Source: an uncultured delta proteobacterium (GTDB lineage: Bacteria; Myxococcota_A; Polyangia; Haliangiales; Haliangiaceae). Taken from it: a stretch of 64,000 nucleotides of DNA. A program made the translations under genes and the position numbers. The DNA lies in NCBI GenBank assembly GCA_963848295.1, contig CAWKDB010000002.1, forward strand, positions 1,408,001 through 1,472,000, in the 5' to 3' direction. Shown here one piece after another: positions 52,862 to 55,433 of the stretch (its first letter is position 1; each line of letters opens with the position of its first letter). Below the pieces are notes generated by a model that made no database searches, was not told the origin of the DNA, and was given only the letters and a program-made list of their open reading frames with translations.

Positions 52862-53039
52862 GACCAATCCTAACGCGCGGCGGAGCGAGAAGACCTGACG
52901 ACTCGCGGGCGGCCGTATCGGAGGTGCCGTATCAAGGCATCGCTGACAGGAAGGTGTCGGGACATAGCTGACACCTATGAAGGGCGATGCCCTGGAATGC
53001 GCGGCGAGTTATGGGTTTGAAGCCCGAGCTCATCACCGA

Positions 53040-53485
53040 TGCGTCGGCGTCGGCGTCGGCTGCGGCGACGGCCGCGGCAACGGCAACGGCTTCGGCATCG
53101 GCGACGGCTACGGCATCGGCGACGGCTCCGGCATCGGCGACGGCGACGGCTCCGGCATCGGCGACGGCGACGGCGACGGCTGCGGCTCCGGTCACGGCGA
53201 CGGCCCCGGCAACGGCTGCGGCGTCGGCGACGGCTCCGGCTGCGGCGACGGCGACGGCATCGGCGACAGCTCCGGCATCGGCGACGGCATCGGCGACGGC
53301 ATCGGCGACGGCTCCGGGGCATCGGCATCGGCGACGGCTCCGGTCACGTCGACAGGGGGGCAACGGGTACGGCTCCGGCATCGGCGACGGCTCCGGCATC
53401 GGGGGCGACGGCTCCGGCATCGGGGGCGACGGCTCCGGCATCGGCGACGGCTCCGGCATCGGCGACGGCGACGGGCGACGGCTCC
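53040..53485. repeat. Degenerate hexamer array (CGGCNN)n, left
   Basis: Units cggcga/cggcat/cggctc/cggcaa over ~445 bp, with a higher-order 18-mer ggctccggcatcggcgac. Confidence 0.95.
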
Positions 53486-53510
53486 GCCGGCTTCGCGACC
53501 GGCGCGTTTG

Positions 53511-53535
53511 AATCCGGCATAGGGTGCCGGAATCA
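53511..53535 (-). terminator. Hairpin just downstream of four-helix-bundle gene 1
   Basis: TCCGGCA-TAGGG-TGCCGGA stem-loop about 15 nt after the stop. Confidence 0.45.
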
Positions 53536-53549
53536 TCTCCGGCGCGCGC

Positions 53550-53870
53550 TCACCGCGTGAGCCGGAACAGCATCGCGCGCACGCGATCGAGCGGCGCCTC
53601 GATCGCGGCGAAGTCCTCGGCGGTGATGTAGCCGCGCGCCTTGGCGATCATGAGCGCCGTCGACAGCTCGCGCGCGCTGCCGAAGGCGCGGCGGAACATG
53701 TCGGGCCGGTCGAGGCCGGCGCGTGCGCTCGCCTCGGCGATGTTGAGCGCGATGCTCTCGGCGGCGCGGCCGATCTCGTCGGCGAGCGACCTGCGCCGCG
53801 ATCGGAGCTTCGGCTCGACCGGGGCGAGCTGTTCGAGGACGGTGAGCGATTGAGCGAGGACGTCGAGCAT
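53550..53870 (-). CDS. Four-helix-bundle protein (23S rRNA IVP/bAvd-like), copy 1
   Basis: SLADEIGRAAESIALNIAEA...FRRAFGSARELSTAL; GAAAGG RBS before the ATG at 53870. Confidence 0.92.
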   Translation of the reverse strand: MLDVLAQSLTVLEQLAPVEPKLRSRRRSLADEIGRAAESIALNIAEASARAGLDRPDMFRRAFGSARELSTALMIAKARGYITAEDFAAIEAPLDRVRAMLFRLTR

Positions 53871-53891
53871 GGTGTTGCCTTTCGTGGATGA

Positions 53892-54093
53892 GCGGACGCC
53901 CGATTCGCCGGGGCCGTCTCGCCCGTCGCGCCGCACTCGCGCCGGCGCCGTGACGAGCGCGAGCACAAATCTCCGCACGCGTCGGTCGATCCAACTCGGC
54001 GGCGGTCGTTCGCACGCGTCGGTGGCCTCGGCGCTCGGCGCGGCGCTGGCGCGAAGCGGCGCAGGGCGACGGCCCCGGCGATCGGTGCGCCGC
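53892..54093 (-). ncRNA. Putative structured leader (RNA or ssDNA long hairpin), copy 1
   Basis: ~200-nt imperfect fold-back, homologous to 54454-54650 with compensatory stem changes. Transcription is not shown by the sequence. Confidence 0.6.
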
Positions 54094-54106
54094 GAGCGCG
54101 AAAGGT

Positions 54107-54424
54107 GGCGGCATCGGCATCGGCATCGGCTGCGGCATCGGCTGCGGCTGCGGCGTCGGCATCGGCTGCGGCTGCGGCTGCGGCTGCGGCGACGGCTGCG
54201 GCTGCGGCGACGGCTGCGGCTGCGGCGTCGGCATCGGCTGCGGCTGCGGCTGCGGCTGCGGCTGCGGCTGCGGCTGCGGCTGCGGCGACGGCTGCGGCTG
54301 CGGCGACGGCTGCGGCGACGGCGGCGGCGACGGCGGCGGCGGCGGCGACGGCGGCGGCGGCGGCGACGGCGGCGGCGACGGCGGCGGCTGCGGCTGCGGC
54401 GACGGCGACGGCGACGGCGACGGC
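54107..54424. repeat. Degenerate hexamer array (CGGCNN)n, middle
   Basis: Units cggcat/cggctg/cggcga/cggcgg. Confidence 0.95.
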
Positions 54425-54453
54425 TTTAGAACCCTCGATGCTCCTTCGCTCGC

Positions 54454-54650
54454 GCCGATGGGCGGAACGTCTCTCTCGCCCTGCGCCGCTTCGCGCTTGT
54501 CCCGCGCCGAGCGCCGAATGCGCCGGCGTCTGCGATCGACCGCCGCGGAGTTGATCGGCCGGCGATTGCGGTGGTCAGCGCCCGCGCTCGTCACGGGACC
54601 CGCGCGAGTGCGGCGCGACGGGCGAGAGAGAGACGTTCCTACCCATCGGC
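54454..54650 (+). ncRNA. Putative structured leader (RNA or ssDNA long hairpin), copy 2
   Basis: GCCGATGGGCGGAACGTCTCTCTCGCCC pairs with GGGCGAGAGAGAGACGTTCCTACCCATCGGC, and pairing continues inward. Confidence 0.6.
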
Positions 54651-54671
54651 CACTCACTTCGGAGGATCATC

Positions 54672-54995
54672 ATGTCGTTCTACGCCCTCGACTTCGCCCT
54701 CGCCGTCCTGCAGCAGCTCGCCCCGATCGAGGCCAAGGTCCGCCGCACGCGCAAGTCACTCGCCGACGAGATCGTCCGCGCCGGCGAGAGCGTCGCGCTC
54801 AACCTCAGCGAGGGCCGCATGCGCATTGGCCTCGATCGCCCCGACTTCTATCGCCGCGCCGCCGGCAGCGCGAGCGAGCTCACGACCGCCCTGCTGATCG
54901 CGCAGGCGCGCGGCATCATCACCGCCGAAGACTTCGCTGCGATCGACGAGCCGCTCGATCACGTCCGCGCGATCCTGTGGCGGCTCACGCACTGA
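54672..54995 (+). CDS. Four-helix-bundle protein (23S rRNA IVP/bAvd-like), copy 2
   Basis: SLADEIVRAGESVALNLSEG...YRRAAGSASELTTAL; GGAGG RBS; ~64% identical to copy 1 by hand alignment. Confidence 0.92.
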   Translation: MSFYALDFALAVLQQLAPIEAKVRRTRKSLADEIVRAGESVALNLSEGRMRIGLDRPDFYRRAAGSASELTTALLIAQARGIITAEDFAAIDEPLDHVRAILWRLTH

Positions 54996-55145
54996 GCAAG
55001 CAGTCTTGCGCCGGCCTCCGCGCCGGCCAAACCGATTTTCGGCACCGCCCAAGCGCGCGAGGTGTAAGCGGGGTGTCAAGAGAACGTCGCCTCGTAACCT
55101 CAAGGATCCCGACAAATGTGTCCGCGATCTCTTGAGCACTTCCTC

Positions 55146-55388
55146 ACGGCAACAGCGACGGCAATGGCGACGGCAACGGCAACGGCGACGGCGACAGCGA
55201 CGGCAACGGCGACAGCGACGGCAACGGCGACGGCGACAGCGACGGCAACGGCGACAGCGACGGCAACGGCAACGGCGACGGCGACGGCAACGGCCACCGA
55301 GACGGCGACGGTTACGGCTCCGGTCACGGCGACGGCAACGGTTACGGCTCCGGTCACGGCGACGGTCGCGGCTCCGGTCACGGCATCG
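55146..55388. repeat. Degenerate hexamer array (CGGCRA)n, right
   Basis: Units cggcaa/cggcga/cagcga; shares ggctccggtcacggcgac with the left array. Confidence 0.95.
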
Positions 55389-55433
55389 CCTGCGGAGACG
55401 GAAACAGGACAGCGTCGGAACCGGCGGGCCGGA

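Follow-up and report, generated by a model that had tools for sequence, protein, structure and literature searches.

The segment at 52915..55395 of the window, by which we mean the whole stretch of 64 000 nucleotides that was analysed, belongs to a real and apparently undescribed family of mobile cassettes. The cassette is very probably a non-autonomous mobile unit and likely a selfish one; it is multi-copy, several of its sites are empty in a sister species and its genes are under purifying selection, all of which supports the proposal of such a unit in the initial annotation of this DNA. Each of its two genes is preceded by a long hairpin, and it is the hairpin that suggests how the unit might work. 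In the reading that we prefer, to which we assign a probability of about 0.43, this is a hairpin cassette without a moving enzyme, in which a sigma54-type promoter and primer site would be completed by folding of the strand, and only for as long as the cassette is in the single-stranded state.

The cassette runs in the order array, gene 1 (minus strand), hairpin 1, array, hairpin 2, gene 2 (plus strand), array, so that the three arrays, the divergent gene pair and the two leaders lie where they were initially described. At its left edge a segment (52915..53043) has no counterpart in the sister species G104, homology to which stops near 52914. Inside this segment, at 52942-53014, there is an inverted copy of the tail of gene 2, with a profile match of E 3e-9 that belonged to the profile's own training set. 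The left hexamer array, (CGGCNN)n, occupies 53044..53474 on the plus strand, as assigned from a TRF score of 330 and polarity counts. There follow on the minus strand a small, probably terminator-like hairpin 3′ of gene 1 (53511..53533) that is kept in nine aligned copies, gene 1 itself (53550..53870; 106 amino acids), hairpin 1 of ∼200 nt (53892..54093) and the complement of the gene 1 ribosome-binding site (54099..54105), placed by position and predicted pairing. The central array, again (CGGCNN)n, spans 54109..54424 on the plus strand. On that strand lie also the complement of the gene 2 ribosome-binding site (54437..54448), predicted by the fold to pair with 54661-54671, hairpin 2 of ∼200 nt (54454..54650), gene 2 (54672..54995; 107 amino acids), a 3′ region (55010..55149) that comprises a small hairpin at 55010-55027 and a tail of ∼90 nt at 55059-55149, and the right (CGGCNN)n array (55146..55395). 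The gene 2 tail is full length in five of ten copies and partial in one; elsewhere in the genome it has no match at E < 2.9 except the inverted left copy, and it led to no further element. The main stems end 21 nt 5′ of each ATG (at 54650 and 53892, counted on the folds), and the ∼200-nt leader with this spacing, as originally claimed, is thus borne out for both genes in the predicted folds. The flanking genes are ordinary (RluA, an unassigned membrane protein and DUF72), and no transposase, integrase or reverse transcriptase is found among them. The flanks are protein-coding at all loci with no match to rRNA, which agrees with the earlier observation that none of these elements is adjacent; a 23S rRNA intervening sequence was rejected as an identity for the cassette on the same grounds.

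Both genes score above the cut-offs of PF05635 and TIGR02436 (gene 1 at 55 and 52 bits, respectively; gene 2 at 46 bits with PF05635), and their proteins are 64–65% identical over the full length, as expected from the description of the units as inverted paralogs with ∼64% amino acid identity. The structure model of the gene 2 protein has four helices with a pLDDT of 94.8, and compares with the structures 2GSC and 2RLD at TM 0.83–0.87 and with bAvd (4DWL) at TM 0.85. Thus both the assignment to the four-helix-bundle family and the resemblance to bAvd made in the initial annotation hold. The protein of 2GSC forms a pentameric ring, according to the available part of its description (PMC4990558).

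The cassette is one of many in the genome, which comprises 7.8 Mb in 11 contigs and whose close relatives are labelled Kofleriaceae or Haliangiales. There are ten gene 1/gene 2 pairs with 92–97% amino acid identity, besides an older pair, a copy that stands alone and another that is truncated; the genome has 31 PF05635 matches, and those beyond the cassette copies belong to other subfamilies. A hairpin profile constructed from relatives finds 24 sites in the genome, every one of them at a cassette. An assembly artefact is unlikely, because the copies diverge by up to ∼10% and their flanks are unrelated. Both genes are under purifying selection, with a pooled pairwise dN/dS of 0.125 for gene 1 (nine intact copies, one broken copy being excluded) and 0.164 for gene 2 (ten copies). 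The four-gamete test fails for 636 of the 990 informative site pairs in one gene and for 494 of the 903 in the other, so the copies are mosaic, and patchwork exchange between them is thereby shown. There is no correlation between the distances among gene 1 units and those among gene 2 units (Mantel r 0.10, p 0.35), and trees are therefore unable to date the copies.

Empty sites in relatives had been suggested as a check on mobility, and all ten pairs were compared with G104, which has ∼90% DNA identity in the flanks and is 90% complete in 1410 contigs. Five clean empty junctions were found, at L021, L028, L029 and L030, and where the left flank of L022 is joined to the right flank of L025; this last junction implies either exchange between two copies in the genome studied here or a misjoin in one of the assemblies. 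At the window's own site a gene of 430 amino acids with sensor-kinase motifs (recognized by eye) replaces the cassette in G104, and at L023 the side that is assembled borders on a different gene. Two further sites hold decayed cassettes, L024 retaining a relic and L027 a hairpin together with a gene 1 that has lost an internal part, and some of the differences in G104 are therefore losses. A 6-bp duplication occurs at a single site only, and the junctions that were compared have no common end sequence. The site of the older pair is empty in six of the eight more distant genomes for which loci were fetched. Three DNA runs of a single study gave contigs over pieces of the stretch, none of them spanning it, and the empty form was not seen there. 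From the empty and decayed orthologous sites we conclude that the unit comes and goes, and that the arrays travel along with it. Stable vertical inheritance in relatives, and family members that lack the leader and arrays, had been named at the outset as observations that would speak against a mobile module; the locus is not stably inherited, and the relatives retain both leader and arrays.

The hexamer arrays are closely associated with the cassette. Of 48 such arrays identified in the genome by pattern, 26 are within 2 kb of a cassette four-helix-bundle gene, and 14 of the 16 others examined lie inside called genes. An array is found 5′ of 24 of 32 gene-bearing hairpins, compared with 3 of 17 hairpins at HNH genes and 20 of 300 control genes. 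Repeats are present in 28 of 30 flanks, and all 28 read on the strand of gene 2. This polarity follows the cassette in both contig orientations, and is therefore not an effect of the replication strand. The mix of units varies from copy to copy, as slippage would give. Conserved peptides encoded by the arrays were considered and rejected, no conserved start being seen by eye. Four of the five clean empty junctions in G104 are without an array, and at the fifth the only repeat is a coding one that belongs to the host gene. The arrays are thus carried along by the cassette rather than serving as its target; of the initial suggestion that the repeats are either target or product, the first part is disfavoured, and what stands is that they come in with the cassette.

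Both leaders are predicted to take a rod-like fold (z −9.0 for hairpin 2 and −7.2 for hairpin 1), and none of 200 shuffled sequences is as stable. A two-part stem motif is matched in 30 of 91 genomes of the genus, including one unpublished genome (G010) that no conclusion depends on, with a single match for the reversed control, and 20 of 23 genes found by protein search carry the hairpin, some of these loci having also built the hairpin profile. In an alignment of 43 hairpins 92% of the cells are paired, and two-sided changes number 138 against nine that are one-sided, counts that are inflated by kinship and in which the innermost helix is fixed by the search; none of 500 shuffles scores as high, and slid controls give 30–51%. 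The pattern of substitution points to DNA. In 32 dereplicated hairpins (of 87), with 12 fixed columns left out, there are 18 G-T and 20 A-C combinations among 1380 aligned columns, compared with 29 G-T and 4 A-C of 462 in a control of tRNA acceptor stems from this genome. On the coding strand most of the mismatches are between pyrimidines, and with DNA energies it is the template strand that folds more stably in 28 of the 32 hairpins. Since there is no excess of G-T, the template strand is the more stable and the hairpin also occurs without the four-helix-bundle gene, the element has the character of a DNA hairpin rather than an RNA leader, and these sequence comparisons indicate that it likely acts as folded DNA. 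For the ribonucleoprotein unit of the initial annotation, in which the protein was to bind its own structured RNA leader, the same observations are adverse: G-U pairs are not in excess in the stem, folding is better for the opposite strand, and roughly half of the hairpins examined are not followed by a four-helix-bundle gene.

The consensus of sigma54 promoters consists of GG and GC at a fixed spacing, of which the GG is read on the non-template strand, and a gene with an RpoN-box motif is present in this genome. In 76 of 159 cases the host motif YGGCACR-N5-TGC is placed upstream of a gene, compared with 1–2% at spacings of 3, 4, 6 and 7, and its sites include that of a pilin gene. The core of the hairpin resembles this motif of the genome's own, split between the two arms. 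In hairpin 1 the putative promoter half on the gene side (53939..53956, minus strand) has GT in place of GG with GC at the exact spacing, and the far-arm half (54035..54052) has an intact GG in the plus reading. In hairpin 2 the far-arm half (54493..54510) has an intact GG in the minus reading, and the putative promoter half on the gene side is at 54588..54605 on the plus strand. The position profile of the stem has no −10 hexamer or canonical −35/−10 boxes, and has the sigma54-like box instead. The GC is exactly spaced in 60 of 61 gene-side arms and 25 of 61 far arms; the gene-side arm has GT for GG, and the far arm retains GG, often with one extra base. Neither arm alone makes a sigma54 promoter in duplex DNA: the 5th percentile of a matrix built from 131 host sites is reached by 1 of 61 gene-side arms and 9 of 61 far arms, and by 40 of 61 in the folded reading, in part by construction. 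In this genome gene 1-type copies score 4.5–7.9 for the folded box against a cut-off of 5.2, and gene 2-type copies, among those listed, score −0.4 and 3.5, below it. The positions of GG and GT are preset by the search pattern except in leaders found by protein, one set of relatives and distant loci, and the pattern-free loci come from genomes related to one another and overlap the training loci; on that footing, the 23 leaders found by protein have a gene-side GT in 17 of the 20 recognized, with GA in two and GG in one, and GG in all 19 far arms recognized. Seven genomes from a different order also display this asymmetry, as judged by eye. In some relatives both arms carry GG (L008, L009, L011, L250, L254 and L267), several are without the −12 GC, and other subfamilies have a different hairpin, no such box or no hairpin. 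Sigma54 polymerase normally requires an activator, according to the available part of PMC5095919, and no activator site was identified for the sigma54-like box.

These features suggest how the cassette might operate. Were the template strand exposed, during DNA uptake, conjugation or recombination, or in replication gaps, it would fold, and the far arm would supply the GG that is missing from the gene-side box. RNA polymerase might then produce a short-lived transcript from the completed box, leading to a burst of four-helix-bundle protein, and the transcript could in addition prime the second strand, as Frpo does. In the double-stranded state the box would be broken and, at the window's locus, read-through RNA would bury the ribosome-binding site, for which two reasons the gene is predicted to be silent in duplex DNA. 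The back-to-back pair would provide one hairpin–gene unit on each strand. A predicted Avd-like ring of the protein would coat or protect the single-stranded cassette, and insertion and spread would be left to host recombination or to a nuclease supplied from elsewhere. No moving enzyme was identified for the cassette, and no source of single-stranded DNA was found; the five pattern matches in viral contigs are at the level of chance, and none is accompanied by a four-helix-bundle or HNH gene. The model in its fullest form is possible if doubtful: an enzyme-free myxobacterial cassette would spread via single-stranded DNA, its split sigma54 hairpin would prime the second strand and switch on four-helix-bundle or DUF222-HNH cargo, and the Avd-like ring would be a chaperone.

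The hairpin is not confined to four-helix-bundle genes. Among 72 of the 102 motif matches outside this genome, hand-picked and often several to a genome, 36 stand in front of a four-helix-bundle gene and 17 are directed at a DUF222-HNH gene (nine in the same and eight in the opposite orientation), with neither kind at 14; the other five scored no hairpin, two of them at contig ends. In G023 a hairpin is found at 12 of 13 DUF222-HNH genes (one partial), seven upstream and five downstream; in G003 it is found at five of the seven fetched, and at L109 one such gene has hairpins at both ends. By eye, DUF222-HNH genes have an upstream TTGACA-type signal of their own. In the genome studied here a search with Pfam DUF222 gives no match, and tblastn with the proteins of relatives finds two full genes and a fragment. 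Cargo that can take either orientation fits the primer or origin role of the preferred model. The invariant mismatches would suit recognition by a protein, and together with the association they speak for an explanation that we regard as rather unlikely, namely that the hairpin is a folded-DNA end signal for a nuclease acting in trans, either DUF222-HNH or Y1/RAYT, in the manner of a REPIN, with its promoter-like appearance incidental or ancestral. The genome has nine Y1 genes, and gaps between convergent genes host 6 of 11 pairs against a background of 17% of gaps (p 0.005, using our own gene calls), both of which are in keeping with an end signal. Against it, neither of the two full DUF222-HNH genes of this genome has a hairpin, none of eight exact motif matches in G100 is near its HNH matches, and the outer ends of the window's cassette are arrays rather than hairpins, in addition to the lack of a common junction sequence and the confinement of the duplication to one site. 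A link to Y1 transposases through a common hairpin was rejected, as the Y1 leaders have another structure (best E 0.36). An end signal would supply the step of entering new sites, and is compatible with the rest of the main model.

It is unlikely that the hairpin instead works as the leader of an mRNA, concealing the ribosome-binding site and forming an RNA-protein unit with the Avd-like protein encoded behind it, an explanation that would account for the strong covariation and the fold match to bAvd. In both copies of the window the ribosome-binding site is predicted to be wholly paired (unpaired probability 0.00), and an internal start is predicted to leave it more accessible in 21 of 32 leaders. 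Yet across the family the masking is weak, with a mean unpaired probability of 0.35 for 32 leaders and 0.42 for 44 host genes, so that masking may silence read-through at the window's locus and is not a rule of the family. Moreover 31 of the 72 matches are hairpins without a four-helix-bundle gene, and no Rfam family is matched at the gathering score, the only hits being to mir-598 at 27.6 and 20.1 bits against 69, in an array; these points, with the DNA-like substitution pattern and the greater stability of the opposite strand, tell against an RNA leader.

It is very improbable that the cassette is copied by way of RNA, using a reverse transcriptase encoded at another place in the genome, the protein acting as an Avd-like helper and the arrays arising as products of the polymerase. 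The likeness to bAvd, the presence of three reverse transcriptase genes above cut-off elsewhere in the genome and the arrival of the arrays with the cassette in one polarity would all be explained, but no reverse transcriptase is present in the loci fetched around the pairs, and the three genes resemble by eye pieces of group II introns that adjoin a different four-helix-bundle element. The stem is of DNA type, and the array unit mix differs between copies in the way expected of slippage. A diversity-generating retroelement was likewise rejected, the reverse transcriptase matches being elsewhere and none beside the pairs. Least probable of all is that the genes are of use to the host and have multiplied by ordinary duplication, template switching keeping their palindromic promoters similar. 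In its favour are the purifying selection, the two sites common to the sister species and the relatives with GG on both arms; against it are the patchy presence across the genus, the empty and decayed orthologous sites and the fixed mismatches, which homogenization should erase.

How does the cassette compare with known systems? In the available part of PMC4990558, the ORF-bearing 23S rRNA intervening sequences of Coxiella and Leptospira carry S23p/PF05635 proteins and are regarded as selfish; they have in common with the cassette the protein family, a gene beside a stem and adjoining short tandem repeats, heptamers in Coxiella. The cassette differs in lying outside rRNA, in a stem that is upstream of the gene and does not enclose it, in being paired and dispersed at gene ends, and in having genes under purifying selection. 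Frpo/ssi of F and ColIb-P9 are single-strand promoters, and for Frpo a double role as promoter and primer site has been proposed, as far as the available text of these sources goes (PMC9849209, PMC7736820 for the promoters; PMC7736820 for the double role). There too a long imperfect hairpin with a promoter-like box in its stem stands before a gene, and in the cassette predicted folding likewise puts a long and stable hairpin on the strand that serves as template for the gene downstream. In contrast to Frpo/ssi the cassette is chromosomal and multi-copy, and instead of canonical −35/−10 elements it has a sigma54-like box with one half on each arm. REPINs, as presented in the available part of PMC3116915, are non-autonomous, extragenic, hairpin-forming and dispersed, and are served by RAYT transposases; both are dispersed extragenic hairpins present or absent between relatives, with Y1 genes in trans. 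Unlike REPINs, the cassette carries protein genes and microsatellites, and its hairpin is found also with DUF222-HNH genes and not beside Y1 genes; a REPIN/RAYT arrangement with a palindrome flanking the RAYT gene was rejected, as the hairpin profile has no match at the Y1 loci of this genome. The Avd protein of diversity-generating retroelements (4DWL; available part of PMC10053308) has a like fold, but its sequence identity is 11% and the cassette has no adjacent reverse transcriptase or target gene. An IS or MITE was rejected, the ends being same-strand arrays with differing junctions, and terminal inverted repeats or a uniform target duplication being absent. In the gene cassettes of integrons attC is a long imperfect DNA hairpin with fixed mismatches, a variable tip and a strand bias, and the present cassette likewise combines a gene with a hairpin of this description; here, in contrast, the hairpin is upstream, the cassettes are dispersed rather than arrayed, and the core boxes of attC were not seen by eye. 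In its way of working the cassette would come closest to a passenger of the REPIN type that is equipped with a hairpin of the Frpo type. No description of it was found in the open-access papers searched.

The single-strand promoter model for the hairpin is testable, and its predictions are sharp, being for one strand, one sigma factor and one mismatch. We know of no example of a sigma54 promoter that is active only in single-stranded DNA; if the model is true this would be the first known to us, and the orphan PF05635 family would gain a job. PF05635 proteins are widespread and their structures have been solved, and the Avd homologue is the only one for which a function has been described; in this cassette they are accompanied by a defined cis element and by empty and filled sites. 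Recombination between cassette copies may also reshuffle the chromosome, and the occurrence of the same hairpin with an unrelated family of nucleases suggests a general, transposase-free way of moving small cargo.

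The source genome contains another four-helix-bundle element, distinct from the cassette in which a PF05635 gene follows a hairpin of ~200 nt among hexamer arrays. It is ~530 bp in length and ends in 14-bp terminal inverted repeats, of which there are 14 sites in the genome. Examples lie at C2:270989-271524 (locus L033), C2:797063-797601 (L064) and C10:3467456-3467985 (L067), C2 and C10 being contigs of this assembly, and there are further copies beyond these three. The interior carries hexamer repeats other than those of the cassette, and a 75-bp version at C10:4408270-4408344 has no gene. 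At several sites the inverted repeat is directly adjoined by group II intron-like reverse transcriptase sequence.

A structured leader of 200-300 nt is common to the Y1/RAYT transposase genes at L058, L059, L060 and L063 (e.g. C10:3658120-3658484). It occurs in ~12 copies in the source genome, part of them away from the listed Y1 matches, and is unrelated to the cassette hairpin.

The genome's one single cassette copy is immediately adjoined by about six tandem repeats of ~190 bp located 3′ of tRNA-Leu(caa) (L031:2600-3720; C10 near 1111600-1112711), each containing the 3′ end of that tRNA. In relatives, a PDDEXK_3 gene stands behind a hairpin that has no four-helix-bundle gene, and Y1 and Uma2 genes adjoin cassettes (L139:933-1373, L096:624-1181 and L143:65-544). 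A solitary intergenic hexamer array lies beside a short palindrome at L045:2061-2148, with no cassette gene. Compared with the sister species (G104:C854:2975-2980), the flanks of cassette copies L022 and L025 are swapped, the result either of a rearrangement mediated by these copies or of misjoined assembly sequence.

In the window itself there is a transposase-like gene pair, as judged from sequence (8179-11287), and the short repeat at 8199-8275 falls within the 3′ end of one of its genes. An FHA and sigma54-activator-like gene (49436-50922) is apparently broken across two or three frames, by a frameshift or an assembly error. Genome-wide, numerous sigma54-type sites are placed exactly 28-29 nt upstream of a start codon, a spacing suggestive of leaderless transcripts from such sites.
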